IMG/VR virus record: IMGVR_UViG_3300045988_175036
Location: 1-64,000 of that record
Length of the DNA: 64,000 nucleotides
Strand: one strand, 5' to 3'
Source: a virus
Part shown: one piece after another, positions 1 through 64,000 of the stretch
How positions within the stretch are numbered: position 1 is the stretch's first letter
How the letters are laid out: each line of letters opens with the position of its first letter
Notes under the pieces: model-generated
Seen by the model: the letters and a program-made list of their open reading frames with translations, nothing else
Databases searched by the model: none
Told to the model about the DNA's origin: nothing
Made by a program: the position numbers and the translations under genes

Positions 1-20
1 ACTTTTTTTTAGTTGGAAAT

Positions 21-389
21 TCAAGTTTCGCAAAATTCTTTTTGCTCAATCATCATTGCCAACCAATCCCTAAATTGAGCATAGCTCATGGCGCGCGCGA
101 CCTCGTTTTCTATTACAACCAATCCTAGCTGGTGGTCGCGCGCGAACTCCTCTTTCAACGCGTAGTTTTTCTTTGTGTGTTCTTTTGCGTTTTCGTAATG
201 GATATCAATTAGGAGAAGTAGCTGATAGGGGACATAGCTCGTGTCTAAAATTCCAAAGGAATAACCAGTCGGCGCCCCGTGAGTCGAGCGCAACTCCTTG
301 AAAGTGTAGAACATTACATAATGAAAGCTCCATTCATCTAGGGCTTTTGCTACTAGGTTTTCGGTATATGTTTTGTGGTAACGAAGCAT
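21..389 (-). CDS. hypothetical protein (122 aa)
   Basis: ORF with AAGGAGG about 6 nt upstream of the ATG at 389. The segment LLLIDIHYEN..VVIENEV loosely resembles Vsr/DUF559-type nuclease cores, but the match is weak. Confidence 0.55.
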   Translation of the reverse strand: MLRYHKTYTENLVAKALDEWSFHYVMFYTFKELRSTHGAPTGYSFGILDTSYVPYQLLLLIDIHYENAKEHTKKNYALKEEFARDHQLGLVVIENEVARAMSYAQFRDWLAMMIEQKEFCET

Positions 390-447
390 TGCGCGCCTCC
401 TTTAGTAAGTTTTCTTCTGTTAGAAAGAGGGAAGAAAATTTGAGGAC

Positions 448-1371
448 TCAAAAATTTTGAGAGGAATACAAGAAAAACCTCTTATAACTGGAAATAAAAA
501 AATCTGTTAGAGAAAAACGGATAAGAATATTTTTGTAAGAAATAGGGCGTACAAGATAGTGGTTTAGAAGTAAGGGGGAGCATAGAAGAAAGGAGAGAAT
601 AGAAATAAAAAAGAAGTAGAAAAAGAGGAAATAGAAATAAAAAGAAAAAAAGAAAGGGAAAAGTAGAAAATATAGAGGAAGAAAAAATAATATGGGAAAA
701 TAAAAGAGGGAGAAAAGAAAAAAATTAGAAGAAGAATTATATGGAAGGGCGTAAATAATAGAATTAGAAAAAGGATATATAAGAGGGAATAATAAAAGGG
801 GAAAATAGAAGAGGAAAAGATAGGAGAGAAAGAGAAAAGAAAAAATTAGAAGAAGAGTATAAATAGAAGGGCGTAGAAGAAGGAAGACAAAAGAAGGGGA
901 TAAAGAAAAAAAAGAGAAACAAAGGAAATAGAGAAGAAAGAAAAGAAAGGGCGTAATCAATAGAACTAATAAGAGGGGAAAGTAAAATTGGAGAAAAGAA
1001 AAAGGGGAATAGAGGAAAGAAAAAGAAAAAAATCGTAGAAAAAGTGTAAACGAAAAAAAATTCCAAAAAAAAGGGAGAACAGAAAAAATTTTAGAAAAAG
1101 GGCGTAAATAAGAGGAAATAGAGGGGAGGAAGAGAAAAAAGGGGAAAAGGAAAGGGCAAAAAGGAGAAAAAAAATTCCAAAAAAAAAGAAGAGAACGAAA
1201 AAAATCGTAGAAAAAGTAAATGAAAAAATTTTCCAAAAAAGGAGAAAAAGGAAGAAAAAAGGGGAGAATAGATGAAAAGTGGAAAAAAGAAGGGAGTAGA
1301 AAAGAAAGAAAAAAGAGGGAACGAAAAGAACGAAAGAACGAAAGGAAGGAAAAAAAGAAGCTTAGAAGCAA
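448..1371. repeat. 0.9-kb polypurine (top strand) / polypyrimidine low-complexity tract with degenerate internal repeats
   Basis: The top strand is almost all A/G with scattered T. C is largely confined to five AGGGCGTA boxes (545, 747, 869, 949, 1100) and two ATCGTAGAAAAAGT boxes (1032, 1204). Partial repeats: 720-768 vs 841-885, and 1025-1090 vs 1197-1250. The only ORFs are F/L/S/P-rich translations of the bottom strand. Confidence 0.9.
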
Positions 1372-1400
1372 TGGCTTAGAAGCAACGGCTTATATATAGA
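1360..1400. repeat. 14-bp-period tandem repeat (GCTTAGAAGCAA x2 plus a degenerate third copy)
   Basis: GCTTAGAAGCAA at 1360-1371 and 1374-1385; GCTTATATATAGAAGG from 1388. Confidence 0.8.
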
Positions 1401-1531
1401 AGGGATGGCACAGTTCCCCACGTGGGAGGGGTAGAGTGCGTGTCCGGACGATGGCGGTCAATGGTTGTGGCCATTGGCGGATTGAGATATGTTGAGATAG
1501 GTAGAGGTGTGTGGAAATAGATTTCTCGCGC

Positions 1532-1571
1532 AAAATTCAATTCATTTCAAAATTCAATTCATTTCAAAATT
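1532..1571. repeat. 17-bp tandem repeat AAAATTCAATTCATTTC x2.4
   Basis: Units at 1532-1548 and 1549-1565, then a partial copy. CATTTCAAAATTT recurs at 1594-1606. Confidence 0.85.
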
Positions 1572-1663
1572 ATTTTCTGTCAAAGATTTAACCCATTTCA
1601 AAATTTTTACTATTGCTTATATAACGCTGCACCAGAAAATTTGACATCGTGTTACATGACATC

Positions 1664-1703: not shown

Positions 1704-1716
1704 AGGGGTAGAGAGC

Positions 1717-2260: not shown

Positions 2261-2270
2261 AATTGCGCCG

Positions 2271-6991: not shown

Positions 6992-7028
6992 ACAAAAAAC
7001 AGAAAAAGGTGACGCTCTATGCATCACC
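6992..7028 (-). terminator. rho-independent terminator overlapping the stop codon of 7024..7476
   Basis: GGTGACGC (7008-7015) / GCATCACC (7021-7028), with one G.U pair. Followed on the minus strand by TTTTTCTGTTTTTTG. Confidence 0.7.
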
Positions 7029-7476
7029 TAATTGAATGAAGGAAGTCAAAAATCTCTGTCGCGTCATATGCCACCATTCCTGCGTGCGTCCATTCTTCAC
7101 GATTTGGCTTTTCATCATCAAAAAGGAAACCGCCGCGTAACGTGCCAACTTCGCTTTTTGGTGTGCCGTAATGAACAATACAGATTTCATCGAATCGAAC
7201 GCTTTTTAAATGGCGCGAAAGCCATTCCATCTTCGCGCGGCGAACATCTTCAAGAAATTTTTCATCGCGGTCTTTGCTTCCCCATGATACTACACGAATT
7301 TTCCATCCCTTGCGCTGAATCGCGTTCAAACGTCGCGCCAGTCTTGAAAGATTGAGAAGTGCGCGCGCGTCTCTATATGGGCTTGCATCATGCGCGCGGA
7401 TTTTCGGAAGCCAATTTTCAACGCCGTAGAAATCGACAATTGTGCCGTCCATATCCAAACTAATAATTTTTTCCAT
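7024..7476 (-). CDS. HAD-superfamily phosphatase, 5'(3')-deoxyribonucleotidase-like (150 aa)
   Basis: N-terminal DMDGTIVDF (the DxDxT motif I), WGSK, and C-terminal FLFDDEKPN, as in NT5C-type nucleotidases. Confidence 0.55.
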   Translation of the reverse strand: MEKIISLDMDGTIVDFYGVENWLPKIRAHDASPYRDARALLNLSRLARRLNAIQRKGWKIRVVSWGSKDRDEKFLEDVRRAKMEWLSRHLKSVRFDEICIVHYGTPKSEVGTLRGGFLFDDEKPNREEWTHAGMVAYDATEIFDFLHSIR

Positions 7477-11568: not shown

Positions 11569-12867
11569 ATGCCTAAACGAAATCGCTTACAGCTAGACTT
11601 CTCGCTTTCTTCGGCAGAAGAACGTCAAGTCTTTCTCACGAAATATCTTGAAACCTTAGCGTTTACGCCAACTTCATCCGAACTAGAGCTAATGGCCGAC
11701 TATGTTCTATGGGGAGATAAGAATTCTGACGAAACCATTGAACTAGAAACCTTCTGGAAAAAGAAAGAAAAAAAAGTCGAGTCTCTTGACGAATTACAAG
11801 AAAACCCCACTTTCCTCGAAGCACGTCTTGCTTCTCCTTACGTCGCTCCAAAAACTCAAAAAACGCGTCGAGTCTTTTCTCGTGAAGAAGCTCGCTCTTT
11901 CGCTTCTCCCTATGTGCTCGCGCACCTTGAAGACCTTTGGCGCGAAATTGATACGCTCGACCTCGAAACTCGCTTCTATGAAAACTTTATTGGCCGTCAG
12001 GCCAAGCCTCCCCGCAGTCAGCTCCTTGAACGTTTTACTTCGGCGGAAGCCGAAGAAATTCGCGCGCGCGCCCAATCGCTAACCGAATATGCTTACTTGA
12101 AGAAACGAAAACTTCTAGTTGAGAAACGTTCTGAACAATATCCATGGCGTGATACTTACGCGGCCCCTCTAATCCAGCGTCACACCCCCACTATTGTCCA
12201 AGACCCCGTACCTCCTCCGCTCCTAAACGCAGATATTCCCATTCTTCCACTCGGAAACCTCCCAATTCAACTGGCTCCAAAAATTTTCCCTTCCTCCGGT
12301 GAGTTTCCAACTCCCGGCACTCTAACCCCAGACGAAGAAAAGCTTCTCTCCAAAACCATCTGGCGCGAACCCTCAAATGCGCCGAACTCATTTGATTTCC
12401 GTGACCCAGCACACCTCGCTTCTTTTATCTCTCTTTATTCTGAGCTTTTGCCCGACCAAAACTCTGATGAAGGCCTTCAAGCCCTTTTTTCCACTTTTAC
12501 CTATTACCAAAAACTCGCACGACTTTCACCTCTCTACCTCGACATATTGCGCGCGAAGGTCGAACACGAAACCAACACTAAAATTGTAGAGAAGATAGCA
12601 TCAAAATACGGCAAATCCTATGGCGAAAATTATATTTCAACTCTTTATCGCCAAAAGATATTGCCAAAAATAGCCGCAGCGGCGTCCGCGCATTACCAAG
12701 TTACTTCGGAGTTATTTTTCCCCGAAAACTTCAAAACGTGTAAGGATTGCGCGCGCACGCTACTTAGGACTCCAGATTACTTTATGCGCAAAGCGAAATC
12801 TTCAGATGGCTTTTCACCCCGTTGCAAAGCTTGCGAAAAAGCGCTGCGCGAAAGGAGGAAAAATTGA
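11569..12867 (+). CDS. hypothetical protein (432 aa) with a C-terminal CxxC..CxxC zinc ribbon
   Basis: GGAGGG RBS. C-terminus CKDCARTLLRTPDYF...PRCKAC resembles the N-terminal ribbon of 13130..14125. Confidence 0.7.
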   Translation: MPKRNRLQLDFSLSSAEERQVFLTKYLETLAFTPTSSELELMADYVLWGDKNSDETIELETFWKKKEKKVESLDELQENPTFLEARLASPYVAPKTQKTRRVFSREEARSFASPYVLAHLEDLWREIDTLDLETRFYENFIGRQAKPPRSQLLERFTSAEAEEIRARAQSLTEYAYLKKRKLLVEKRSEQYPWRDTYAAPLIQRHTPTIVQDPVPPPLLNADIPILPLGNLPIQLAPKIFPSSGEFPTPGTLTPDEEKLLSKTIWREPSNAPNSFDFRDPAHLASFISLYSELLPDQNSDEGLQALFSTFTYYQKLARLSPLYLDILRAKVEHETNTKIVEKIASKYGKSYGENYISTLYRQKILPKIAAAASAHYQVTSELFFPENFKTCKDCARTLLRTPDYFMRKAKSSDGFSPRCKACEKALRERRKN

Positions 12868-13139
12868 AACTAGATTTAGTAAATGAGTTTGTCGCACGCG
12901 CGGCGTCACTGGAAGTAGAGGAGTTTTTGGGGCTTACCAATCTTCTCAATGTTCCGCTGACTACGGAAGCGCGCGATCACCGTCCTTTTGAGGATGTCTT
13001 TATTGATGCAGTTGTCGCTTTCGGTAAAATGGGGCGGAAGCAAAAACGAGAACTTATAAAAGTGCTGCGCCGCGTAGAAAAAGACAATAAAGAAATGCGC
13101 GCGACCATTGAAGAGGAGGCGGCCTCCAAATGCCAGTAA
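12864..13139 (+). CDS. hypothetical protein (91 aa, TTG start)
   Basis: AAAGGAGG at 12851-12858, then TTG at 12864, which overlaps the upstream stop codon (TTGA). The track's ATG at 12822 lies inside the upstream gene and has no RBS. Confidence 0.5.
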   Translation: MKLDLVNEFVARAASLEVEEFLGLTNLLNVPLTTEARDHRPFEDVFIDAVVAFGKMGRKQKRELIKVLRRVEKDNKEMRATIEEEAASKCQ

Positions 13140-14125
13140 TTCCTCAAATTCCTCGCCCTAAGCGTTCGTTTCTCTCAAAACGGTGCGCGCGATGTCAGGT
13201 AGAACAACCAGAAGAGGATTTCGCTTTCACTCACAGCGAATTCTATCCCGACCACCATCTTCCACTTTGTAATTCATGCATTACTTCGATGTTGCGCGAA
13301 CACGACTTTGATTGGGGTTTTATTGATAAGTTGTGCCAATGGGCCGATATTCCCTTTATTGTAAAAGAATGGGAGAGATTGCGCGAACTCAATTCTCTTG
13401 ATAGTGTATGGGCAGCTTATTCCAAAGTTTTTGCCTCGCAAGATTATGAAGGCCTTGGGTGGGGCTCTTATTTCAAGCAATATCAAGAACTAAAAGCAGT
13501 CGGTCTAGTGGAAGAAGAGATTCCACTTTTGAAGGAGAAGCATTTCGATGAGCTGCGCGCGCGATGGGGCGCAAATTACGATGAAGAGGCTCTCGATTAT
13601 CTTGAGAACCTTTATCAAGGACTTTTGATGTCTCAAAATGTAGTCGGCGCGCTTCAAATTGACCAAGCTCAAAAACTTTGTAAAGTTTCGTATGAGATTG
13701 ATAGTCGCATCCGCGCGGGAGATAAAGATGTCGATAAATTCATGGCAACCTATGACAAGCTAGTCAAAACCGCTGAGTTCACACCTAAAAATATAAAGAA
13801 CGCGCGTGACTTTGATAGCTTTGGTGAATTGGCACTTTGGCTTGAAAAGCGCGGAAATCAAAATAAATTCTACGATGGCGCGACACGTGATGTTATCGAT
13901 GAGACTATCAAAAATATTCAAGCTTGGAACCAGCGTCTCTATGTAAATGAAAGTAGTCTAAGTGAAGAAATTACCGCGCGCCTACAAGCTCTCAAAAATG
14001 TCCAAGAAAGCGAAAACTTCTATGAGACAGAGCAAAAAGATTTCGACGCAGACCTCTACGAAGCAGAAGTTTTCAAAGATGAGGATAGTGAAGACTTTGA
14101 AACAGAAGGAGAGATGGGCATATGA
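13130..14125 (+). CDS. hypothetical protein (331 aa) with an N-terminal zinc ribbon; small-terminase candidate by position only
   Basis: CARC..x25..CNSC. Sits immediately upstream of, and overlapping, the large terminase. Acidic C-terminus. Confidence 0.35.
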   Translation: MPVIPQIPRPKRSFLSKRCARCQVEQPEEDFAFTHSEFYPDHHLPLCNSCITSMLREHDFDWGFIDKLCQWADIPFIVKEWERLRELNSLDSVWAAYSKVFASQDYEGLGWGSYFKQYQELKAVGLVEEEIPLLKEKHFDELRARWGANYDEEALDYLENLYQGLLMSQNVVGALQIDQAQKLCKVSYEIDSRIRAGDKDVDKFMATYDKLVKTAEFTPKNIKNARDFDSFGELALWLEKRGNQNKFYDGATRDVIDETIKNIQAWNQRLYVNESSLSEEITARLQALKNVQESENFYETEQKDFDADLYEAEVFKDEDSEDFETEGEMGI

Positions 14126-15699: not shown

Positions 15700-15892
15700 A
15701 GAATTCACGATAGTACAGTAGCAACAGTATTTCGAGTCAATAAAGTAAATGGCAAATACTATTCAACAGTAGTAAATATCTATGTTCTAGGGCGTCAAGC
15801 GGAAACTAAAACTTTCTCTCAACAGGCAATTGATATAAAACTTCTAATTGAGAGATATAATCCGCGCGAAGTCCTTATTGACACTAATGGCT
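15700..15892 (+). CDS. terL: terminase large subunit, exon 3 of 4
   Basis: Nuclease-domain segment RIHDSTVATVFRV...VLIDTNG. Confidence 0.75.
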
Positions 15893-20115: not shown

Positions 20116-21171
20116 ATGACTATTGCTGAACTACAAGAAATTGCCCTTCACGCTGTAAAGGGCACTGTGCCTGCTACTTATGCAAATAAGGAAGTTGATA
20201 TGCAGGCCGCTTTTGCTGATGGTCTTAGCGAGCTAATGGGCTCCTACAATCAGTTTATGAAGAATCGTTATGACATTTATGAAATTGTCATGAAGGCCTA
20301 TAACGAAATTCTTCCTGCAAAGGTTATTGATGCCATTGGTGCTTTTGCTGATGTTCAAACCACGAAGAATGGCGAGAAGGTTATGTTCAAGGTCCGCAAG
20401 GGCAAGCTACGCGCCAAGAAGTTCCTAACTCAGGCTGCTATCAATGGTGTTTATGAGACTTTCCGTCTTGATTCTGACACCTTCACTCTTGCTATGCACA
20501 ATGTCGGCGGCGGTGTCTCTGTTGACCTACAACGTGTTGCTGACGGCGCGGAGTCTCTAGCCGAGTGTATGGCTATTCTAAATGAGGGTCTAACTGACGC
20601 TGTTTATTATGAGGTTTATAAAGCCCTCCGTGCAGCTATCAATGCCTCTGCTCGTCCTGCTGCTAATAAGGTTGACGTTTCTTCTTGGGATGCTGAGAAG
20701 ATGGTCAAGCTAGTCAATGTTGTTCGTGCGTATGGCAATGGCGTTGCTATTTTTGCTCCTCCTGAGTTCATTGGTGCGATGGGTGCTGACGCCATTGTTT
20801 CTGGTATTGCCAATACCACCAATGGCATTTATCATCCTCAAGATATTGATGCTATTCATAATACTGGTTACATCAATATCTTCCGCGGTTGCCCAGTCGT
20901 TCCAATTCGTCAGTCCTTTATTGACGAGAGCAATGAGAAGACCTGGATTGACCCACAGATTGCTTATGTTCTTCCCGCTGGCGGTGAGAAGGTTGTCAAG
21001 GTTGGACTCGAAGGTGGCTCTCTAATTCGTGACTACCAGAACCGTGATGGTTCTACCGAGATTTATGCTGAGCAGAAGATGGGCTGTGCTATTCTTGCTC
21101 ATCATAACTGGGGTATTTATAGAAATACCGGTATCGAGCAAACTTACGAGAACCCCTACGTCAATCTTTGA
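20116..21171 (+). CDS. major capsid protein (putative, 351 aa)
   Basis: Size and position fit a capsid gene. Strong AGGAGGG RBS, biased codon use, and a strong terminator directly downstream. Confidence 0.55.
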   Translation: MTIAELQEIALHAVKGTVPATYANKEVDMQAAFADGLSELMGSYNQFMKNRYDIYEIVMKAYNEILPAKVIDAIGAFADVQTTKNGEKVMFKVRKGKLRAKKFLTQAAINGVYETFRLDSDTFTLAMHNVGGGVSVDLQRVADGAESLAECMAILNEGLTDAVYYEVYKALRAAINASARPAANKVDVSSWDAEKMVKLVNVVRAYGNGVAIFAPPEFIGAMGADAIVSGIANTTNGIYHPQDIDAIHNTGYINIFRGCPVVPIRQSFIDESNEKTWIDPQIAYVLPAGGEKVVKVGLEGGSLIRDYQNRDGSTEIYAEQKMGCAILAHHNWGIYRNTGIEQTYENPYVNL

Positions 21172-24368: not shown

Positions 24369-24389
24369 ATTTTTATAGGAGGCTATAAA

Positions 24390-24416
24390 ATGGCTGATAT
24401 TCTAAGTCGCTATGGT
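24390..24416 (+). CDS. major tail (tube) protein, exon 1 (9 codons)
   Basis: Strong AGGAGG RBS and an ATG at 24390, but a stop after only 10 codons. MADILSRYG ends at U24416. Exon UAUGGU pairs with ACCAUA (24429-24434). Confidence 0.55.
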
Positions 24417-25620
24417 AGATAAAATGCCACCATAAGAAGTAATTCTTATTGGAAAAATCTTGTGAATTGCTGGAAGATTCTAAAGCTAACTGACTACAAC
24501 GTAAGAAGTAATTCTAAGCGTGAGAGTGAAAAAATAGTTAGATAGTGAACTCGAAGGAGGTCTAAAATGGATAATCAGCAGCTAAGCATCAATTCAGAAA
24601 TATATTATAGAAAGCCTACTAGTGGGAATGGTTTTATTTATAAATACACAAGTCCATCTGGAAAGAGTTATATTGGAAAAGCAATAGGAACTTTGAAAAA
24701 GAGAGCTATAAATTTAGTCTCTGGGATAGGGTATAAGAAATGTCCTCTTTTTTGGCGAGCAATAAATAAATATGGATTTTTGAATTTTCAGGTAGAAATA
24801 ATTGAAGAAGCCCCTTTATCAATTTTAGGCGAAAAAGAAATTTTTTATATTGAAAAATATAATACAAGAAACCCCCATGGATATAATATTGCTCAAGGTG
24901 GAGAAGGGGGGCAAAAGAAAGAGGTTTATGTATATTCGGCGCAGAATGGAGAATATGTTGGGCATTATTCAAGCTTGACGGAGGCTTCAGTGGAAACAGG
25001 AGTTCCTATTGAAACAATCAGTATAATAATGAAGCAGCAAAGACGAAAACAGGCTCACAATTTGATTTTTTTGGATAGCTATATTGAAAGATATGATATA
25101 AATAATTTAGCTCGAAAAAATTATACAAAAGTTTTTGTATATGATAAAAACGGGAGCTACGTAGGCAGTTATAGCAGTATTTCTAATGCTTCGAAAGAAT
25201 TGGACATATCAGAAAGTGCAATAACACGAGCACTTGCCGGCACTATTTTACATGCTTCATTTTTTCAGTTTAGAAAAGAAAAAGAAGAGTATTTACCTCC
25301 AATTCCCAAAAATTCAAAAAGCCCGATTCCTGTATGCCAAATTGACCCAAAGACAGGAGAAATTCTAAACAGATTTAGTTCTCTTCAAGAAGCTGGTCGA
25401 GCGGTCGGATTGACAAGTGGTAGTGGAATAAAAAAAGTAATTACAAGAGGTAAAGGAACTAGTGGTGGATATTTCTGGATAATTGATGAAAGTTCAACGA
25501 CTAAGTAGAGCAAAATCCTAGCTCTCTGTGCAAGACCTCCAATTTTATTGGAGGAAGATATAGTCTAATCTTAGGCGAAAGTCTAAGCAGCATTTATCTA
25601 GTCACAATAAATGCGGACAG
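24417..25620 (+). mobile_element. group I-like intron carrying a GIY-YIG endonuclease gene (3' boundary uncertain by about 12 nt)
   Basis: Same core family as the terL introns: GAAUUGCUGGA 24464-24474, UUCAACGAC 25493-25501, GAUAUAGUCUAAUC 25557-25570. In-frame 3' sites that follow a G are at 25621, 25627 and 25633. Confidence 0.65.
24567..25508 (+). CDS. GIY-YIG homing endonuclease (313 aa) with three NUMOD1/IENR1-like helix-turn-helix repeats
   Basis: GFIYKYTSPSGKSYIGKAIG, RAINKYGF, EKEIFYIEKYNT and GYNIAQGG. Repeats VYVYS..GEYVGHYSSLTEA, VFVYDKNGSYVGSYSSISNA and IDPKTGEILNRFSSLQEA. The last codons overlap the intron core element at 25493-25501. Confidence 0.85.
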   Translation: MDNQQLSINSEIYYRKPTSGNGFIYKYTSPSGKSYIGKAIGTLKKRAINLVSGIGYKKCPLFWRAINKYGFLNFQVEIIEEAPLSILGEKEIFYIEKYNTRNPHGYNIAQGGEGGQKKEVYVYSAQNGEYVGHYSSLTEASVETGVPIETISIIMKQQRRKQAHNLIFLDSYIERYDINNLARKNYTKVFVYDKNGSYVGSYSSISNASKELDISESAITRALAGTILHASFFQFRKEKEEYLPPIPKNSKSPIPVCQIDPKTGEILNRFSSLQEAGRAVGLTSGSGIKKVITRGKGTSGGYFWIIDESSTTK

Positions 25621-26352
25621 ATTGGGAACCTGTTGAATGTTATGATTAAGGAAGTTTGTGACTTCACTCTATATGATATCAATGACGACGGTTCTATTGG
25701 CGCCCCTGCGCTATATCTGGATACTCTAAAAATTTCAACCGTCGAGCAAACAGCTGATAGCACTTCTGCTCGTGGCGGCAAGGGTAATAGCGAATTGGTT
25801 ATGTGGGATTTTGGTCGTGAAATCACCCTAAACCTTCAGGATGCTCTTTTCTCTGCTAAATCTATGGCAATCATGTTTGGTGATGCTGATGGTGCTTCTG
25901 CTCCTGCTAGTGGTTCTGTGCTTCGTACTTGGAACCTAACTAAGCTTGGCACTCTTAGCGCTGCTCCTACTCAGCTAGATCTAGGCCTTGGTAAGAAGCA
26001 TACTGTTTCTACTAGCGCTGTTTATTATACGGCTACTGGCTCTTCTAGCTCTGAATGGAGTGCTGACGCTGTGTATATCACTGACAAGGTTACTACCAAA
26101 GACCACACTGAAATTGTTATCAATGCTGAGACGTTCCCCGGAACTTATGCATGTATTGGCGACACTTACTGCCGCAGTGAAGATACTGGTAACGATAGCT
26201 TCTTCCAAATTCAAATTCCAAAGGCAAAGATGCTTTCTGACGTTACTCTAACAATGGAAGCTGAGGGCGACCCCACTGTCTTTGATATGCAGATGAAGGT
26301 TCTCCGTCCAAAGAACGGCGAAATGATGAAGCTAGTCAAGTATGATATCTAA
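25621..26352 (+). CDS. major tail (tube) protein, exon 2
   Basis: Beta-rich protein of about 245 aa lying upstream of the tape measure gene. A strong terminator follows. No good RBS precedes the internal ATG at 25642. Paralogous to 26416..27195. Confidence 0.55.
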   Translation: MGNLLNVMIKEVCDFTLYDINDDGSIGAPALYLDTLKISTVEQTADSTSARGGKGNSELVMWDFGREITLNLQDALFSAKSMAIMFGDADGASAPASGSVLRTWNLTKLGTLSAAPTQLDLGLGKKHTVSTSAVYYTATGSSSSEWSADAVYITDKVTTKDHTEIVINAETFPGTYACIGDTYCRSEDTGNDSFFQIQIPKAKMLSDVTLTMEAEGDPTVFDMQMKVLRPKNGEMMKLVKYDI

Positions 26353-49284: not shown

Positions 49285-49311
49285 GAGAGGAGCTTCGGCT
49301 CCTCTCTTTTA
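49285..49311. terminator. terminator hairpin at the convergence of the plus and minus blocks
   Basis: GAGAGGAGC-TTCG-GCTCCTCTC (49285-49306), followed by TTTTATT on the plus strand. Confidence 0.75.
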
Positions 49312-50031
49312 TTCCCATTGAACAATTTCTTTATGAGGAAAGTTTCTATCAGAAACAAATTTTCCAATTCCAATGGCGTCCGCGCAGTCATCATTTACAC
49401 TTACGTCATACCATTGTTTTACTAGATTTTTCATTGAAGCTTTTCGGTCGCTTCTTGAGCGCCCCTTTACGCCACAGTGCGCGCGCCATGTATTTGTTGG
49501 ACATATTTCAAAAGAGATACCACGCGCGAAGCACGTTTCCATCAAAATTCCTTGAAGGCGTGCGAGTGTTTGAAATGTCGTAACTCCATAATTCTGCTCA
49601 TATTGAATTCCTTCAATACCAACAAAATCAATTTCAAAAGTAGAAATAATTGACATCATCCATTCTTTTATGCGATGGTCACGCGCAATTTCATCTGTAT
49701 TTTCAGGCGCATCGAAGTATCCATACTTTATCAATTTTTTATCTTCAAAGATTGAAAAGCCACTTCGTTTTGTCGCTTGGTCAAGCCCAAGAACACGAAA
49801 ACTTCCTTTTTTCTTTGGAATTGCTTCTAATTTTATTTCTTTATATGGATTGTCTTTACAGAAAGGACATTCGCGCCGCATACGAATCTTTTTCCATGGC
49901 GCGAATACTTGATGTCCCTCTGAGCACACAAATTCCATTATAGTATCAAGATTTTTATACTCTGTAGAAATGAGTTTCCAGCCGTCTTTTTCGATTTCGG
50001 CTTTTATGTCGTCCAATTGTATCTTAGCCAT
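49309..50031 (-). CDS. RuvC-like Holliday junction resolvase with an N-terminal zinc-finger domain (240 aa)
   Basis: VLGLDQATKRSGFSIF (catalytic Asp), FVGIEGIQYE (Glu) and DCADAIGIG. N-terminal C..H...CPFC. Confidence 0.7.
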   Translation of the reverse strand: MAKIQLDDIKAEIEKDGWKLISTEYKNLDTIMEFVCSEGHQVFAPWKKIRMRRECPFCKDNPYKEIKLEAIPKKKGSFRVLGLDQATKRSGFSIFEDKKLIKYGYFDAPENTDEIARDHRIKEWMMSIISTFEIDFVGIEGIQYEQNYGVTTFQTLARLQGILMETCFARGISFEICPTNTWRAHCGVKGRSRSDRKASMKNLVKQWYDVSVNDDCADAIGIGKFVSDRNFPHKEIVQWE

Positions 50032-56031: not shown

Positions 56032-57160
56032 TTATAAACATCTCCTTTTCATAATGGACAGAGATTGTCTCGTAGAACATCTTGAAAAGTTCATAATTCT
56101 TTTCACGAATATATATAAAGCTTTTCCGATTTTCCTCAAGGGAAGTCTTTGGAGAGAGAGATTTCTCTGTAAAAATTGGACCAGAATTATACTGAGATTT
56201 TGCTTTTAGGTAATAATATAATGTGGTCAGTTTTCTATCTTGGCTTTTTTGAAAAAATTCATTCCAAAGTCGAAAAAGGTTTTCTAACTCTTGTGAAAAT
56301 GGAGATTCTCTACCAAGAGTAAGTAGAAAATTTATCTTATGAGTAGATAAGTATAAACACTGTCTGTATACAATAGGTAGTGTTTCTAGGATTTGCTCAT
56401 CACAAGATGTTGTGGAAAACGGATTATATATAATTTTCCGCGCAGTTCTAGCAGGAATATCATCACATAGTTCTTTTACCATTTTATCAGGCATCAGGTC
56501 TTCATATTGAACTTGGAAAATACCTGAAAGAGGTGGAAGACTAAGCCATTCATAGAGTTCTTCTTTTGTGCTTACAGTTGGCGGAAATTTCATCCCAATT
56601 GGCAACACGTGAATTTTTTCAGGATTATTTACACCAAAACGAGAATTAGATAACTCTTTCAGGAAACTAACGGCTCCTTCAACTTGTCCAAGGTTATAAT
56701 CATGAAGAATAATACCTGATGTTTTTGGAAAAATCTGTGCTTTGAGTTGCTTTTCCACAAAGCTATCAATACCATGGCCTTCACGCGAAAGACGTCCATG
56801 TCCTGCGCGTAAAATCCTCTTAAAAGTAGCCTTATCTACTCCGAAGTAACTTTCATATTTTTCATACGGAGAAAAATCAGGGACAATACTTTCAATTTCT
56901 TTTGAAAAAGGAACATAATTTTCTAATGATACCGCGCGACCACCATATCCTACATTAGGTAAAAAAAGTTCTTTTGGATACAATCTATCCTCGTAATCTT
57001 TTCTTACAAAAAAAGAATTATAGCGTTCTGGCTCCAAAGTAGGAGCCAAAAGCGTTATATCTCTTTTCTTCTTGTAGTAGGCAAGAAGCTTCGCACACTC
57101 AAGATTTGGCATTACATTCCAATAATGAAAAAAATCATAATCATGAATTCCAACTATCAT
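56024..57160 (-). CDS. hypothetical protein (378 aa)
   Basis: Long ORF translationally coupled between the polymerase and RNR genes. No motif recognised by eye. Confidence 0.6.
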   Translation of the reverse strand: MIVGIHDYDFFHYWNVMPNLECAKLLAYYKKKRDITLLAPTLEPERYNSFFVRKDYEDRLYPKELFLPNVGYGGRAVSLENYVPFSKEIESIVPDFSPYEKYESYFGVDKATFKRILRAGHGRLSREGHGIDSFVEKQLKAQIFPKTSGIILHDYNLGQVEGAVSFLKELSNSRFGVNNPEKIHVLPIGMKFPPTVSTKEELYEWLSLPPLSGIFQVQYEDLMPDKMVKELCDDIPARTARKIIYNPFSTTSCDEQILETLPIVYRQCLYLSTHKINFLLTLGRESPFSQELENLFRLWNEFFQKSQDRKLTTLYYYLKAKSQYNSGPIFTEKSLSPKTSLEENRKSFIYIREKNYELFKMFYETISVHYEKEMFIND

Positions 57161-60100
57161 TCATCTAACTCCAACCTTGGGCGCATTTTTATTTTACCAT
57201 CTGGATAAACTTCTTCAATCAATTCACAAAGATGGTAGGGGGTTGCTTTATATTTTTTCGCGCGGAAGCTATCACCATCACGAATTCCACACACTACAAT
57301 TTTGTTTCCACGTGCAAAAGTAGATTTTTCTTTGACGTGTTTCTTGCCATCCACACCTTTTTCAGAAATTTGGCGATCATAGATATTGAAGACTTCACCA
57401 AAAATCTTTACTGTAACAACCCCATCTGGCGTCAAAAGTGTCACTAATTTCTTCATCTTATCACGGTCAAGAACGGTTCCATAGATACGATGAATTTTGA
57501 AGATTGGAACACGTTTACCCTTGATTTCAAAAACTCGCTCAATCTCTGGTTCTTCTGCTAAGTCAAAGAAGTTCGAGAAGCCATAATATGTGTTATCGAC
57601 ATGTGCGAGTTCGTGTTCATGGAAATAACAAGAAACGCTGTCCATTTCCCATTTACTTATATTTCCAAGGCAATACTTATTCCACACATCTTCTGTCAAT
57701 CGACTATTTACAGAAGAAAGAAGTTTTTGATTATTCTCTTTGACGTAGGGACGAATTCTATCCATTACTTCATCATAGATTTTTTTCCACGTGATTTGCT
57801 TTATGCCAAAGCCACTTTCCGCGCGAGCGTCCTCAACCAGCTTGTCGATTGAGAAGTTCTTATCAAAGAAAACCATCGCAATGTTATCTAAAAGGAATAA
57901 ATCATCTACTTTGGATGTCTTTAGATATTTGTTGAAGTTGAAGACCCGGCGAACAAAATCGTATTCGCTTGGAATAAGTCCAAAATCAATCAACATTTTC
58001 ATATTTTGGAGAGTAATACGTTTCTTTGCGTCGCTAATAAGGTTGATATATTCGTGCATCACTTGTTCGCGTTGGCCGAAACTGTCGAAAGCGCCGCACT
58101 TTATGAGATTTACCATTTGAGGCTTGTTGATTTTTACTTTTGAGAGGAAGTCTGGGATTGAAGTGTAAGGACGATTTTCGATTATTTGTTTTACAATATC
58201 TTGACCGATTTTTGTAATACCATTCATACCAAAACGAATAATTGAATTTTCAACATCTGGAGAAAATGTAAAAGTGGATTTATTTATATCTGGTGGAGCA
58301 ACTGTAATTCCAGCTGCTTGCATTTTTCCAAGCGCCGCGGCAATTTTACCGTAATTACTTACTTTTACTTTTTTCTTCTTTTTAGTTGTTAAGACTTTAT
58401 TGACTTCAGTATCATCTTCTTCATCTTCTTCATCGTCATCATCGAATTCTTCTATGCAATCAGTATATTTTTCTATTGTGAACGTGTCCTCTTCTTCATT
58501 TCCATCGTTATCATCACCCTGTTGTTCATTGCCACCACTGTCACTAATTAAGCAAGCACAATTCCAAAAAATAATTGGAAAGCGATAAGCCAAATTCATT
58601 TCTTGCAAAGCCACAAGAGAATATGAAAGGGTGTGCGCACGACAAAATGAGTAACCACGCTGAACACGAAGTAAAATGTCCCAGACATAATGAACAAGTT
58701 TCATATCACATTTTTTTTCTTGAGCATTTTCAAAATAAGCCTTTTCACATTCGTCAAAAAGCTTACCTTGTTTTTTTGCAATTGCCTTACGGCATTTGTC
58801 TGCAAAGGTCAGACTATTACCACCAAGTTGTTCTTCTTGTAGAAGCTGCATCATTCCTTCTTGACTTTCACAAATACCATCGGTAATAGCGTTGTGCGAC
58901 ATTAGCCAATCAATATTGACCTGACTTAGGCCATACGTGCACATCTCTCGTTCCCATTCTATGATATTGGAACGATATCTGGCCCACATATCAAGAGGTT
59001 GTTCTGCACCCTTTTCAGGAGCCATGAGACGAATAACTGAATTCAAAACCGCTAATTCACTGACACTTTTTGGATGCGTTAGCGCGATACCATTGATACC
59101 ACTTTGTTTTTCCATTTGAAAAAGACTGGTAATTTTATGCTCCCAAACCATTTGCCACATTTTTGGGGCGGTGCGCTCAAGATTATAAATTCCAATGATT
59201 TTCTCATAGGTTTCTCGTAATGTTGCTTCTGGTTTTATATAGCCATATTCTACTAATAAATCTAACTCATTATGAATTTTATCAAGGGCTTCAATAGAGA
59301 GCATGTCAATTTTAATGAGTGATACATCCTCGCAATCATGTAACTCAAAAGCAGTAATAATCGTACCATCTGGCGCGCGCATTAGAGCCGTAGAATTAGT
59401 GAAAGGTTCATCAACAAAAATTACTCCGCCAGCATGTATTCCAACTCCACAAATCAGTCCTTCAATTTTAGAAGCTACTGCCCAAACTTCTGGATAATTT
59501 TCCGTCATTTCAAAAACAAATTGTTTGATTGGCTTGAAGTCCTTCTCTTCGTCACCATTCATGCATTGTGATAAAGACCGTAACTGGCCGCGGTCGGATG
59601 GAATTAGTCCAGCTAGATAAGAAGCAATATCAACCTCAATATTGAGGCCGCGACAGGCAGTTAGAATAGCAGACTTGGATTTTTCGGTTTTGAAGGTTGC
59701 CACATTAGACACTCTGTCTTCGCCATAAAAGTCTCGAAACTTTTGAAGGACTTGTGCACGCTTACTTCCTTCGATATCTGTATCACAGTCAAGAACCGAA
59801 GCTCGATCAGGGTTCAAAAAGCGCCAATGGAATACTTTCGTCTCTTCAAGAAGCGGGTTTATTTGAGTAATTCCAAGTACGTATAGTAGAATAAATCCTG
59901 CACCAGAACCCCGCCCTGGCCCAACAAGAGAACCAGCCTCCCAGCACAAATCAATATTTTTTTGAAGATTTAGATAATATGCAGACCAATGAGCATTATT
60001 TTTGATAGAAGAACGCCAAGTATCATCGAGACACACATTTATTTCTTTATAAGCCTCATCCGTTTGAAGCCCGCGTCGAGATTTTATACCATCAATAACT

Positions 60101-61155
60101 GCCCAAACAAGATGTCTATCACCAATATAATTAGAATTATAAAAAGTTTCAAGAAGTGGGATTTTATTTTTATAGAAAAGATATTCATCTTTATTTTGTG
60201 GATACTTGTACCACTCTAATTCTGGAATTCTTAGAGGTTTTAGTAGGCTATAATCTTCACAGGTTTCTCTAATCTTAAGGATATTTCTATATGCTTTTTC
60301 TAATTGTTCCCTTGAAAAATATCCAAAATAACTTTCAAGTTCTTCCGTATTCATCATATACGTAGACACGTAAAAGTCATCAACTTCACGGTCGCCATTT
60401 TGAGCATTTAGATATGCTTTATGGATAGTGCGGTCTTCTTTCTTTAGGTAATGACTATCAGTTGTAATAATATAGGGGATGTCTAATTCTTCTGAAAGTT
60501 CAAAGAGTCGTTGATTTACATAGACTTGATCTTTATTATGGCTTGGTTGCATTTCAAAGAAAAAATTACCATGTCCAAATAAGTTATCTAATTGACTAAT
60601 CCAATTATAAATTTTTGGTAACAACTCTGGTTCAGTCTTCGCACGAAGGAGTTGAGTAGGAAGACAGCCACCCAAACACGCTGATGAACCAATAATATGT
60701 CCTGGGTTAGCACCAATTATCTCAAATAAATCGCTATAATAAGTCGGAACACGTCTCATGCCTCGCGCCGTATAGCTACGAAGCCAAGCACGCGTAGAAA
60801 GTTCACGGATTTGTTGGTGACCAATTGCATCTTTTGCAAGAAGAATAAAGTGATAATATTTGTCTTGACCTGCTTTATAATTAGAAGCATTGAGGCCATT
60901 GCGGCAAAGATAAATCTCATTTCCTAGAATAAGCTTAAAATCAGGATTCTTTTCTTTTACCTTTCGATAATATTTCTCAGCGCGAACTGCGCCAGAGACG
61001 GTTTCATGGTCAGTAATGGCTACTACTTGATGTCCTAGTTCAATTGCATAATCAATCAAATCTTCAGTCTTAATGATACAGTCACGAAGACGTTCATTTG
61101 ACCAGTCAAGATGATTATGTAGAGAACCAGGGTACTTTAGTTTTCGTTCGTCCAT
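57157..61155 (-). CDS. dnaE: DNA polymerase III alpha subunit-like replicative polymerase (DnaE-type, 1332 aa)
   Basis: N-terminal PHP domain (SLHNHLDWS, VAITDHE). Size and layout fit a C-family polymerase. An internal acidic insertion plus Lys run is present. Confidence 0.85.
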   Translation of the reverse strand: MDERKLKYPGSLHNHLDWSNERLRDCIIKTEDLIDYAIELGHQVVAITDHETVSGAVRAEKYYRKVKEKNPDFKLILGNEIYLCRNGLNASNYKAGQDKYYHFILLAKDAIGHQQIRELSTRAWLRSYTARGMRRVPTYYSDLFEIIGANPGHIIGSSACLGGCLPTQLLRAKTEPELLPKIYNWISQLDNLFGHGNFFFEMQPSHNKDQVYVNQRLFELSEELDIPYIITTDSHYLKKEDRTIHKAYLNAQNGDREVDDFYVSTYMMNTEELESYFGYFSREQLEKAYRNILKIRETCEDYSLLKPLRIPELEWYKYPQNKDEYLFYKNKIPLLETFYNSNYIGDRHLVWAVIDGIKSRRGLQTDEAYKEINVCLDDTWRSSIKNNAHWSAYYLNLQKNIDLCWEAGSLVGPGRGSGAGFILLYVLGITQINPLLEETKVFHWRFLNPDRASVLDCDTDIEGSKRAQVLQKFRDFYGEDRVSNVATFKTEKSKSAILTACRGLNIEVDIASYLAGLIPSDRGQLRSLSQCMNGDEEKDFKPIKQFVFEMTENYPEVWAVASKIEGLICGVGIHAGGVIFVDEPFTNSTALMRAPDGTIITAFELHDCEDVSLIKIDMLSIEALDKIHNELDLLVEYGYIKPEATLRETYEKIIGIYNLERTAPKMWQMVWEHKITSLFQMEKQSGINGIALTHPKSVSELAVLNSVIRLMAPEKGAEQPLDMWARYRSNIIEWEREMCTYGLSQVNIDWLMSHNAITDGICESQEGMMQLLQEEQLGGNSLTFADKCRKAIAKKQGKLFDECEKAYFENAQEKKCDMKLVHYVWDILLRVQRGYSFCRAHTLSYSLVALQEMNLAYRFPIIFWNCACLISDSGGNEQQGDDNDGNEEEDTFTIEKYTDCIEEFDDDDEEDEEDDTEVNKVLTTKKKKKVKVSNYGKIAAALGKMQAAGITVAPPDINKSTFTFSPDVENSIIRFGMNGITKIGQDIVKQIIENRPYTSIPDFLSKVKINKPQMVNLIKCGAFDSFGQREQVMHEYINLISDAKKRITLQNMKMLIDFGLIPSEYDFVRRVFNFNKYLKTSKVDDLFLLDNIAMVFFDKNFSIDKLVEDARAESGFGIKQITWKKIYDEVMDRIRPYVKENNQKLLSSVNSRLTEDVWNKYCLGNISKWEMDSVSCYFHEHELAHVDNTYYGFSNFFDLAEEPEIERVFEIKGKRVPIFKIHRIYGTVLDRDKMKKLVTLLTPDGVVTVKIFGEVFNIYDRQISEKGVDGKKHVKEKSTFARGNKIVVCGIRDGDSFRAKKYKATPYHLCELIEEVYPDGKIKMRPRLELDE

Positions 61156-61463: not shown

Positions 61464-62253
61464 TTTCTTTCTCCCATTGTTCTTTTAGCCATTTGCGGAG
61501 TCTCCATGCAGGCAAATTTGGCGAAGCAACACATTGAAGTAAATTTTTATAATTACATTCTTTTAGCTTTTTTTCTAACCACTCTTTTATATTATCGTCA
61601 CATCTAAAAACTATTTCATTAGGACAGGTTTCACCTTCATCCAATAGCTTTATTGTCCCCCAAGCGGAAACACGGAAGTCCCAAGGATAATTTAATATAT
61701 CATCTGGGTGCTTATATTTACCAGTCCGAAAGATATGCCTGCATTCTAAAATTCCTGAAATGTCATAATTTTGTTTATGTCCATTCTTACAATAATGATA
61801 TATATTCAAGCAACAATGAATTTTTCTTCCGCTATAAGGTAAAATTCCTAAGTCTTCACTATATAATAGTTCAGTGTCTTTCATTGTTCTATTTTGATTT
61901 AATTGACTAATTGGCTGAATGAGTGAAATATATGGCGAATGAGTTAAAGAAGCCTTTATAAATTGAACAGAAAGTTTATTAGCTCTACCAAAAGGGGGGT
62001 TGCCAATCACAAGAGATTTTTCTTCATAAGGGAGTTTTATATCTCTATAATCAGCTTGAATAATATTTGGGCCTTCAGGCAAAATATCATAAGCTAATGT
62101 GTTATTTGGCAAATAAGCCAGATATGCCCCAGCTCCTGCTGATGGCTCAATAATTCTGTCCCAATCTGTTCCAAGAATTTCAAAAGTTTTTTCAACGCAG
62201 TACTTGGCTATACTATTTTCAGTATAATATTTATCATTTGCAATTTTTCCCAT
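61447..62253 (-). CDS. N6-adenine DNA methyltransferase (268 aa)
   Basis: DKYYT, motif I IIEPSAGAGAY and motif IV IGNPPFG. Confidence 0.75.
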   Translation of the reverse strand: MGKIANDKYYTENSIAKYCVEKTFEILGTDWDRIIEPSAGAGAYLAYLPNNTLAYDILPEGPNIIQADYRDIKLPYEEKSLVIGNPPFGRANKLSVQFIKASLTHSPYISLIQPISQLNQNRTMKDTELLYSEDLGILPYSGRKIHCCLNIYHYCKNGHKQNYDISGILECRHIFRTGKYKHPDDILNYPWDFRVSAWGTIKLLDEGETCPNEIVFRCDDNIKEWLEKKLKECNYKNLLQCVASPNLPAWRLRKWLKEQWEKENDKNL

Positions 62254-62254
62254 A

Positions 62255-62770
62255 TCATACCTCTAAGAATTTATTTAGCTCGGAAAAAGTCATAAAACGG
62301 TATTTAGAAAAAGATTGTTTATTTTTCTTGGTTGAGCCAGAAATTGTATAACAGCTTTCTTCTATCCTAGAATGTTGTTTACTTTTAGAAAATAATTGTT
62401 CATTTATAATATCTCTACTAGGAATAAAAAATATCTCTTCTCCGCCATTTTCAGTATCATAATTAACGAAAAGAAAATATTCACACTCATATGGATGACA
62501 TTGATTATAAGTAATTGTTTTCAACGGCAGCCGAGCAGATTTGACCTCTACTCTACCATATTTTTCAGAAAACATATCATGACCAGCGGAGTTATCTTTT
62601 CTCAGAGCTGGAACTTGGCTAAGAATATACGGCTCGCTCCATTCTTCACCAAAGGCTTTATTGGATAAACTTTTTAAGTTTCCATAAGGATTTAATTCTG
62701 AAATTCTTTTTTCACATTCTGCAATAATTTGTCTCAATTCTGAGACAGAAGTAATTTTTGATAAATCCAT
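62255..62770 (-). CDS. PD-(D/E)xK nuclease-like protein (171 aa)
   Basis: GHDMFSEKYGRVEVKSAR fits D-x10-E-x-K. Sits directly upstream of the methyltransferase with a 1-nt gap. Confidence 0.45.
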   Translation of the reverse strand: MDLSKITSVSELRQIIAECEKRISELNPYGNLKSLSNKAFGEEWSEPYILSQVPALRKDNSAGHDMFSEKYGRVEVKSARLPLKTITYNQCHPYECEYFLFVNYDTENGGEEIFFIPSRDIINEQLFSKSKQHSRIEESCYTISGSTKKNKQSFSKYRFMTFSELNKFLEV

Positions 62771-62802
62771 AAGAAAATTTCCTTTCCAATTTCTTTATTT
62801 CT

Positions 62803-62831
62803 ATTATATCACAATTTTCTCTAAAAAGCAA
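62803..62831 (-). promoter_or_regulatory. sigma-A-type promoter with extended -10
   Basis: -35 TTGCTT 62826-62831, 17-nt spacer ending in TGTGA, -10 TATAAT 62803-62808. Confidence 0.5.
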
Positions 62832-64000
62832 ATCTACTATCTTCAATCTCCAAATCAGTTATGAAGATTTGAGGGGTTGTTTTACCTCCCCATTCGTTTA
62901 GATTTGGCTTGCCAACTAAAGTAATATCCATATCACCTGGAAAGTCTTTTAGCTCTCTAATCAAATCTTTCGCGCGGAACTTTACATAGGTAATTCCATT
63001 CTTCTCAATTCGTAAAGTGTCTAAATTCTTTCCAATAATTTTTACATTGTTCTGAGAAACATTCAAATTGGTAATTGCCATAACCGGTTCTTCATTTTGT
63101 TGTCCATAAACTTGCTCAATTGCGCAAAGCTCTTCAATGGCTTCTTCAATTTTTTGGTCGTCAGCGCGCATCACAAAATCTACGTCATAGTAATTTTCGC
63201 CGAAATCAATTTTTGAGAGTTCTTTATTGGCAATTTCATGGAAAGTAGAAAGATTGCGGTCAAGAATACTTACTCCAAGAGCTTGGTCGTGACCAAGCGT
63301 ATACTCAAATAGTTTAGTACTAGCCATGAAATTTTTGAAAGATTTTAGTTCTGTATTTCCAGGCGCGCGAGCACTCCCTCGAATATATCCTTCATTATTG
63401 AGACGAGCTACGATTGTAGGGCGTTTATACTTCGATGCGATGCTCATTGCCAGAAGTCCATTCAGTTCTGCGGGAAATACATCATCATCCTCTAGCCGAA
63501 TAAATAGAACTTGGTTAGATAATAAATCCTTCTTGAAAATTTTGGCTTCAAGTTTCTCAACCATCTGCTCTTTCATTTTATCTTGGTGAGACTTAGCGTT
63601 CACGCACTCGCGCGTGCTTTCAACACAAAGACGTTCTTTTGTGCCTTTCGCGCCTCGCTTATGACAATCAACCATTACCTCGGGCATTACAAAAGATAGA
63701 TATAAGCGTTCTTTCTCATCCATTGACCCAACTCTAATCATGGCATTGATTAGCGGCACAATATAGAAAGCGACTGTGATTGGAGTGATTTTCCCGCCCA
63801 TTGAATAGTCTTGCTTTTCAAGCAAAGTCCTAAACATTTTATTCTTGATATTTTTGAAGCCAGTTTGAACAAGATATTGATTTTCAACCTCTAACATTGA
63901 CATCATATCTGCGACAATGCCTAAAGCACATAAATCAATGTATTCCCAAGCAAGGTCTTTTATAAAAAAGTCGTCAAGCGCGCGACACAGCTGCCAAGTG
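62821..64000 (-). CDS. DHH/DHHA1-family phosphoesterase, RecJ-like exonuclease (5' end outside the window)
   Basis: The frame stays open upstream of the track's ATG all the way to the window edge (..LCALGIVADMMSM.., a RecJ-type motif). DHHA1-like TLGHDQALG near the C-terminal third. Confidence 0.6.
   Translation of the reverse strand, partial: TWQLCRALDDFFIKDLAWEYIDLCALGIVADMMSMLEVENQYLVQTGFKNIKNKMFRTLLEKQDYSMGGKITPITVAFYIVPLINAMIRVGSMDEKERLYLSFVMPEVMVDCHKRGAKGTKERLCVESTRECVNAKSHQDKMKEQMVEKLEAKIFKKDLLSNQVLFIRLEDDDVFPAELNGLLAMSIASKYKRPTIVARLNNEGYIRGSARAPGNTELKSFKNFMASTKLFEYTLGHDQALGVSILDRNLSTFHEIANKELSKIDFGENYYDVDFVMRADDQKIEEAIEELCAIEQVYGQQNEEPVMAITNLNVSQNNVKIIGKNLDTLRIEKNGITYVKFRAKDLIRELKDFPGDMDITLVGKPNLNEWGGKTTPQIFITDLEIEDSRFAF

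Follow-up and report, generated by a model that had tools for sequence, protein, structure and literature searches.

Over-representation of short alternating G/C runs in an AT-rich SPbeta-like gut phage and its relatives

Why should an AT-rich phage genome carry so many copies of the palindromic hexamer GCGCGC? The question is raised by a 64-kb window (the whole stretch analysed here, positions 1 to 64,000 of IMG/VR virus record IMGVR_UViG_3300045988_175036; 37.9% G+C), which spans roughly one half of an SPbeta-like siphovirus genome of ~120 kb. Gut metagenomes are the only known source of this phage, whose structural proteins carry YonB, YonD, YonG, YomU and YomW domains. An initial annotation made from the sequence had estimated about 65 copies of GCGCGC and regarded this number as a significant excess. 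The exact count is 67 (overlaps included) relative to 2.9 expected from base composition, and the excess survives both dinucleotide- and codon-aware null models: dinucleotide-preserving shuffles (n=100) gave 5.58±2.25 copies with a maximum of 10, codon-order shuffling within genes gave 8.3±3.1, and synonymous-codon shuffling within genes gave 18.1±4.0 against the 65 copies located in genes (z=11.6). The hexamer CGCGCG is at least as enriched, with 80 copies in the window and 77 in genes versus 15.8±3.8 under synonymous-codon shuffling. Counted on both strands GCGCGC occurs 134 times, which is matched by Markov models of order 3 (111 expected) and order 4 (160 expected), indicating that there is no hexamer-specific excess and that sub-words account for GCGCGC. 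The view of the palindrome, a BssHII site, as the selected unit therefore had to be abandoned, the more so as CGCGCG is equally enriched.

The enrichment concerns alternating G/C irrespective of run length, and GCGCGC is only its visible tip. The window contains 333 GCGC and 300 CGCG tetramers, and ratios of observed to expected counts (base composition) for words made only of G and C are:

GCG/CGC: 1.78
GCGC: 4.05
CGCG: 3.65
GCGCGC: 23
CGCGCG: 27
GGCC: 0.96
CCGG: 0.68
GGGCCC: 0.7

GC-rich patches or mosaicism can be ruled out as a cause, since other words made only of G and C, such as GGCC, CCGG and GGGCCC, show no excess. Under the synonymous-codon null, GCGC (323 observed, 177 expected) and CGCG (290 observed, 161 expected) are still enriched ~1.8×. 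There are 323 maximal alternating runs of at least 4 nucleotides (nt) and 83 of at least 6 nt, and their lengths follow a geometric distribution (160 of 4 nt, 80 of 5 nt, 42 of 6 nt, 25 of 7 nt, 11 of 8 nt, four of 9 nt and one of 11 nt) with an extension probability of ~0.5 compared to ~0.19 from composition. Most runs are thus short, 240 of the 323 being 4-5 nt long (median 4-5 nt). At the dinucleotide level, GC is over-represented in the window (1.26) and GT/AC under-represented (0.75).

This enrichment runs opposite to the usual depletion of short palindromes in phages, as the initial annotation had pointed out, and the contrast is found within the window itself. Under the synonymous-codon null TTAA (54 observed, 384 expected, z -27), GATC (20/160, z -14) and GTAC (33/116, z -10) are strongly avoided, as are TGCA, TCGA and CTAG, and TCAA and TTGA are enriched in compensation. 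Depletion of these A/T-containing palindromes is a classic restriction-avoidance footprint; the avoidance of TTAA stands out in an AT-rich phage with a probably GC-rich host. GCGC and CGCG show no such under-representation under the same null: although a sister branch of the family described below does deplete them together with GGCC, the sign is reversed in the lineage of the window (1.8×). Nor is the excess a by-product of avoiding other palindromes, as no one-step neighbour of GCGC or CGCG is depleted. The compositional pressure is strong enough to raise the Ala-Arg and Arg-Ala dipeptides of the proteome, which are jointly over-represented 1.7× in this phage and 1.5-1.75× in alternating-GC-rich relatives versus 0.8-1.15× in relatives lacking the signature. 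Literature searches for over-representation of GCGC or GCGCGC in phages or bacteria returned nothing specific.

The initial annotation had attributed many sites to the codon choices GCG-CGC and CGC-GCG. A codon-pair or translational cause of this kind is ruled out by the persistence of the excess under synonymous shuffling, by its occurrence in all three codon phases (18, 29 and 18 copies of GCGCGC in phases 0, 1 and 2, respectively) and by its presence in the non-coding DNA of the window, where alternating G/C is enriched 3.26×.

The excess extends to the other half of the genome (GCGC 4.77×; 37 GCGCGC in 32 kb) and to about 30 family members (47-82% marker-protein identity, 34-40% G+C), in which GCGC is enriched 2.5-5.4× and CGCG 1.7-5.1×. 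One branch of 29% G+C, comprising L039 and L040 (IMGVR_UViG_3300045988_164799 and IMGVR_UViG_3300045988_174608), has essentially no GCGC, CGCG or GGCC; it is also essentially devoid of GATC and strongly depleted in CATG and ACGT. Observed to expected ratios for other phages and for candidate host clades are:

SPbeta: GCGC 0.56, CGCG 0.17
Enterocloster phage PMBT24: GCGC 0.61, CGCG 0.11
phAss-1: GCGC 1.62, CGCG 0.93
Seven bacterial replicons from candidate clades: GCGC 0.25-1.78, CGCG 0.05-0.82

The seven bacterial proxies (Lachnospira, Ruminococcus, Butyrivibrio, Ligilactobacillus, Enterococcus, Bacteroides and Clostridium; the true host chromosome is not among them) have at most one copy of either hexamer. 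Two features of the phage make a Gram-positive bacterium of high G+C content (~60%) the probable host. A 1.7-kb tail-fibre segment outside the window forms a 57% G+C island (L117 9866-11643; contig IMGVR_UViG_3300045988_178625, ~100.6-102.4 kb) which spans the C-terminal part of the tail fibre and the next gene and has 97% nucleotide identity to ~44-kb viral contigs of 61-62% G+C (L118 and others), terminase relatives of which are annotated from Oscillospiraceae metagenome-assembled genomes (MAGs). In addition, the nearest matches to the endolysin are lysins of actinobacterial phages. The 97% identity of the island also implies that DNA has recently been exchanged between this 38% G+C phage and phages of 62% G+C. 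Comparison of the endolysin, GyrB and the GC-rich 44-kb phage with a phage collection resolved no named host. Relatives of the window phage (L015-L021) are found in seven MAG contigs of the Genome Taxonomy Database (GTDB) under Muribaculaceae, Bacteroidales, Methanobrevibacter, Clostridium, Staphylococcaceae and Bacilli labels; these placements are almost certainly binning artefacts of free phage contigs, a warning against using MAG membership for host inference.

The GC-rich phages that apparently share the host lack the bias (GCGC 1.3×, CGCG 1.0×), and the tetranucleotide signature of the window correlates with that of its family (r=0.87-0.89) but not comparably with those of the GC-rich phages (0.09-0.32) or the cellular proxies (at most 0.66). 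Restriction-avoidance profiles vary among family branches, which implies different hosts or restriction repertoires, yet the alternating-GC excess persists among them. Since it is kept despite differing avoidance and is absent from the GC-rich phages, the signature is a property of the phage family and does not follow the host.

Individual runs turn over while their density is retained. The proportion of runs overlapped by a run in a relative falls from 49% at 78% protein identity to 35% at 64% and 8% at 52-56%. The orientations GCGCG and CGCGC show no bias in the three arms (36/30, 92/87 and 32/33), spacing between runs is Poisson-like (coefficient of variation 1.0-1.17), and no periodicity, flanking motif, extended consensus or outstanding 7-8-mer was found. 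A discrete recognition motif, one of the roles proposed in the initial annotation, is therefore unlikely.

Recent substitutions offer a view of how the runs arise. Near-identical sequences number in the hundreds in public assemblies, with 345 of them in one 90%-identity cluster. Single nucleotide polymorphisms (SNPs) were called by blastn projection over ~105 kb from 8-14 near-identical genomes, which match the reference at 84-99% nucleotide identity and in most cases at 93-99%, taking the minor allele at synonymous and non-coding sites as the derived state with no outgroup. Relative rates of changes that create or destroy alternating tetramers are:

C to T destroying an alternating tetramer: 0.246 versus 0.244 for other C to T (odds ratio 1.01)
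T to C creating an alternating tetramer: 0.263 versus 0.138 for other T to C (odds ratio 2.2, p=3e-15)
T to G creating an alternating tetramer: 0.054 versus 0.022 for other T to G (p=6e-5)
T to C creating a non-alternating G/C tetramer (control): 0.166 versus 0.147 (1.13×)

Creation of alternating tetramers is therefore favoured ~1.9× and their loss proceeds at the background rate. By context, T to C changes occur at 0.275 in GTG and 0.20-0.21 in other GTN trinucleotides, compared to 0.137 in pooled non-GTG contexts, and reach 0.36 in GTGC and 0.46 in CGTGC. The effect is strand-symmetric, with sense-strand rates of 0.24-0.35 for T to C at GTN and 0.24-0.27 for A to G at AAC, CAC and TAC, and the influence of a 5'-G on T to C is also present in non-coding DNA. 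A model with trinucleotide context that takes the SNP rates as input recovers a G+C content of 0.37, a GC ratio of 1.18 and a GT ratio of 0.82.

On balance we see an even chance that the excess is a diffuse, family-wide imprint of a neighbour-dependent GT to GC substitution bias and not a set of functional hexamer sites. The SNPs show T to C favoured after G and A to G before C (GT to GC being the complement of AC to GC) on either strand, inside genes as well as outside them, most strongly at GTG to GCG and GTGC to GCGC. Each new GpC step therefore tends to extend an existing alternating run, so that runs grow from their ends, and they are lost at the ordinary rate; such end extension gives geometric run lengths with an extension probability of ~0.5, and the bias itself accounts for the over-representation of GC and under-representation of GT and AC. 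The bias could originate in the error and repair spectrum of the replication and recombination machinery of the phage (polymerase III alpha, helicases and RecJ/RuvC-like nucleases), an attribution suggested by the fact that the signature follows the phage family and is not seen in GC-rich phages apparently sharing the host. RecJ- and RuvC-like proteins are encoded, and replisome genes beyond the window include GyrA (with an intein), GyrB, DnaB, RNase H, an ATP-dependent ligase and a UvrD-like protein. The gene considered as a candidate source of the bias is:

57157..61155, minus strand: DNA polymerase III alpha (YorL-like), part of the phage replisome

The signature is comparable to the genome signatures of the type described by Karlin, in which di- and tetranucleotide biases are set by context effects of replication and repair and which include GpC over-representation. 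As in those signatures, the bias of the window extends over the genome, affects both strands alike, does not depend on gene or codon phase and is present in relatives and in non-coding DNA, and here it is accompanied by a matching context-dependent substitution spectrum in the SNPs. It differs in its unusual higher-order magnitude (GCGC and CGCG ~4×, hexamers ~25×), in not being common to candidate hosts or apparently co-hosted phages, and in that rates conditioned on contexts of up to 5 nt do not fully reproduce it.

Several observations weigh against a purely substitutional origin. Equilibrium simulations with tri- or pentanucleotide contexts yield GCGC at 1.5-2.0×, CGCG at 1.35-1.5× and hexamers at 2-4×, short of the observed 4.05×, 3.65× and 23-27×, so that of the mutational footprint suggested in the initial annotation the direction is borne out by the SNPs and the full extent is not. 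As the rates predict only 1.5-2×, a further force is needed, such as weak density selection, biased mismatch correction during recombination or context beyond 5 nt. In the polymorphism data losses of alternating tetramers (293) exceed gains (189) and yet the level is kept family-wide, which points to fixation bias or selection. The polymorphism-based rates themselves mix mutation with selection and depend on minor-allele polarisation, and models built from them partly reproduce the selection-driven avoidance of TTAA and GTAC. SPbeta and phAss-1 encode YorL-type polymerases yet lack the signature, the host is itself inferred, and the absence of a 5'-G effect in the GC-rich phages (0.118 versus 0.135) is based on a small sample of 115 T to C SNPs. 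The shortfall might be made up by an added weak fixation bias, through heteroduplex mismatch correction or weak density selection, or by longer-range context. The signature is thus real, unusual and intrinsic to the family, with its full magnitude only partly explained. If substitution bias is indeed the source, this phage family has a mutational signature of its own, one that differs from those of its host and of apparently co-hosted phages, is probably due to the replisome brought by the phage and alters the dipeptide usage of its proteome. Host prediction and metagenomic binning based on k-mers would then mis-assign such phages, and scans for enriched "motifs" would require context-aware nulls.

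The unexplained portion of the excess brings selection into consideration, although we regard as unlikely the proposal that selection acts on the density of interchangeable alternating G/C runs, which could serve as gyrase-linked structural or topological elements (B-Z transition, stiffness), as G/C clamps for an AT-rich genome or transcriptome in a GC-rich host or as a composition-based "self-like" mark against a host nuclease. Measured substitution rates below the observed level are what this proposal predicts, as is a polymorphism spectrum in which losses outnumber gains while the level is stable across deep divergence, indicative of fixation favouring the words. Synonymous G/C third positions are also better conserved inside than outside runs at moderate divergence (0.63 versus 0.46 and 0.55 versus 0.37), protein sequence is affected through the Ala-Arg and Arg-Ala dipeptides, the phage encodes its own gyrase, and prokaryotic phyla in general show the reverse trend, with alternating G-C runs suppressed at lengths of 6 nt or more (PMC4060949). 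The per-site loss of tetramers is nevertheless at background (odds ratio 1.01), and in the 8-14 genomes gains and losses cannot be told from controls by their frequency spectra. Positional conservation is missing at 52-56% identity, and the lack of orientation bias, periodicity and flanking motif and the Poisson-like spacing likewise argue against it, as do the absence of an excess in the most highly expressed genes and the existence of a branch (L039/L040) that lives without GCGC and CGCG. An analogy can be drawn to GC-biased gene conversion or weak selection, which keep preferred states against mutation and generate the polymorphism/divergence asymmetry described by Akashi. The excess of "unpreferred" losses over gains in polymorphism with a state held over the long term resembles this asymmetry, but the bias here is word- and context-specific with no general AT to GC effect, and no shift of the frequency spectrum is detectable with 8-14 genomes. 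Regarding structure, a Z-DNA role of the kind raised by the initial annotation (an alternating-CG element) is possible in that the runs belong to the same sequence class as Z-DNA-prone (CG)n tracts and the phage gyrase could supply negative supercoiling. The Z-DNA flip requires alternating purine-pyrimidine runs of roughly 10-12 bp or more, however, and most runs here are only 4-6 nt, the longest being one of 11 nt, four of 9 nt and 11 of 8 nt. It is doubtful that runs are actively maintained, by selection or by dedicated conversion, across a whole family of ~120-kb AT-rich gut phages of high-GC hosts, where they would act interchangeably as gyrase or topology substrates or buffers or as a "self-like" mark blunting nucleases or silencing aimed at AT-rich DNA; such maintenance would explain a level above the capacity of mutation bias and the reshaped proteins. 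Were density selection to operate, it would point to a role, so far unrecognised, for short runs of alternating G/C when an AT-rich phage infects a GC-rich host.

Cytosine methylation followed by T:G repair is an improbable source. Under this model a host or phage enzyme would 5-methylate cytosine in GCGC, CGCG or GpC, and a Vsr-like endonuclease or a glycosylase would over-correct T:G to C:G and so inflate the target words, much as very-short-patch repair reportedly inflates CCWGG-related words in E. coli (an effect said to have been described by Bhagwat and McClelland in 1992). The peak of T to C at GTGC to GCGC (0.36) and CGTGC (0.46) resembles reversed deamination at a HhaI-type site and parallels the context-specific T to C of the E. 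coli Dcm/Vsr system; the total avoidance of GCGC, CGCG and GGCC in L039/L040 shows that some hosts of the family target these words by restriction, and a phage apparently sharing the host encodes a C5-methyltransferase. Against this, motif and Pfam searches of phage open reading frames (ORFs), mostly of at least 150 amino acids (aa) and drawn from the window, the gap region and the remainder of the ~120-kb genome, revealed no C5-methyltransferase or Vsr. Unlike Dcm/Vsr, the bias operates at the dinucleotide level in all GTN contexts and is not site-specific, and the precursor words that deamination would produce are not depleted under the codon-aware null (GTGC/GCAC 0.95, CGTG/CACG 0.90-0.94). 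C to T at GCG is not unusually high (0.28 versus 0.30-0.37 at TCG and ACG), and the GC-rich phages apparently sharing the host lack the bias. The methylation target suggested by the initial annotation accordingly finds no backing in the scanned ORFs or in the deamination-product words. Phages often resemble their hosts in k-mer usage, and amelioration toward a host oligonucleotide signature is favoured by this general tendency, by the true host genome not being among those compared and by the GC-rich phages sharing the direction of the dinucleotide bias (GC 1.21, GT 0.82). We consider it quite improbable, given the missing excess in the seven cellular proxies, the near-neutral ratios and weak signature correlation of the 61-62% G+C phages, the persistence of the excess across branches with differing avoidance profiles and the gap between a likely host of ~60% G+C and a phage of 38%. 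Very improbable is a motif built around GCGCG that would act like Chi in recombination or against nucleases, protecting linear phage DNA from AddAB or RecBCD. Known Bacillota Chi sequences contain GCG cores, that of Lactococcus being GCGCGTG, and GCGCGA/TCGCGC slightly exceeds what the order-4 Markov model predicts (86 versus 62), but GCGCGTG itself is rare (five copies on one strand and nine on the other), no specific 7-8-mer stands out, and the excess, which is symmetric, scales with the length of the run. The absence of orientation skew in any arm largely refutes this possibility.

Within the window, alternating runs are unevenly distributed among genes, as summarized by the following features:

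12061..12071, plus strand: longest alternating run, CGCGCGCGCGC, 11 nt, in frame as Arg-Ala-Arg-Ala within the sigma-factor-like gene 11569-12867
11569..14125, plus strand: densest region, comprising the sigma-like gene and a YonG-like gene
49309..50031, minus strand: RuvC-like gene, the most enriched of all genes with 18 alternating tetramers (10.2×)
391..396: GCGCGC outside coding sequence, flanked by the start codon of minus-strand ORF 21-389 and the ribosome-binding site (cctcc on the plus strand)
20116..21171, plus strand: cold spot, YonB-like major capsid gene, 45.5% G+C (5 observed, 5.6 expected, 0.9×)
25633..26352, plus strand: cold spot, YomU-like tail tube gene (1.2×)
24369..25632, plus strand: cold spot, mobile homing-endonuclease insert (NUMOD1/I-HmuI-like), absent from relative L025
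14501-14776, 15447-15658 and 15806-16079, plus strand: three group I introns in the terL region, none with GCGCGC

The sigma-like gene and the YonG-like gene (13130-14125) each contain 32 alternating tetramers, 4.7× and 7.8× the expected number, respectively, and the in-frame Arg-Ala-Arg-Ala example at 12061 had been correctly noted from the start. The product of 11569-12867 is a 432-aa protein that has a sigma-factor-like region (phrog_5767) and, at its C-terminus, a Lar-like zinc-ribbon segment, and its gene, among the richest in alternating G/C, sits at the switch to divergent transcription. A non-coding GCGCGC had been placed at 361-370; such a site exists, but at 391-396. The major capsid and tail tube genes have a G+C content of 44-46%, above that of the genome, yet show no alternating-GC excess, a sign that the compositional pressure may give way to codon selection where expression is high. 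The endonuclease insert is truly depleted, with one alternating tetramer compared to 7.8 expected at the genome-wide ratio. The claim that the terL introns lack GCGCGC holds for the literal hexamer but not for alternating G/C as such, since intron 3 (15806-16079) has eight alternating tetramers as well as CGCGCG at 15863 and 15970.

The phage encodes many homing endonucleases, seven tRNAs and an endolysin with CHAP and PG_binding_1 domains. Its load of selfish elements is heavy: besides the terL introns and the NUMOD1/I-HmuI-like endonuclease in the tail-tube region, several GIY-YIG and LAGLIDADG genes, and inteins in GyrA and in a family-2 glycosyltransferase (GT2), occur beyond the window (L056 8933-12529; L069 7119-9080). 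Genes for nucleotide metabolism are located at 50049-50930, 7024-7476 and 51976-52506 and at L069 7119-9676. They include a gene for a 293-aa protein with duplicated dUTPase/dCTP-deaminase-like domains, an NT5C-like deoxynucleotidase, a GT2 glycosyltransferase, a dNMP-kinase-like ORF and an adenine-methyltransferase-like ORF with a weak, sub-threshold match and an (N/D/S)PPY-type motif, a gene set that could hint at DNA base modification. The distant relative phAss-1 (OQ749652.1) uses TAG-recoded genes (PMC10607447). The window phage has long intact ORFs under the standard code, indicating that TAG recoding is not a family-wide trait.

A purine-rich tract at 400-1400 (GC skew +0.30 and AT skew +0.30 over positions 1-2000) had also been described as free of GCGCGC. 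No copy is present, but with ~1 expected in a G+C-poor and skewed sequence this is uninformative. The tract gives rise to a spurious F/Y/S-rich minus-strand "ORF" at 448-1371. Assemblies of this phage are circularly permuted, counterparts of the tract lie at the ends of several independent IMG/VR contigs, and it may mark a physical genome end or an assembly break point.

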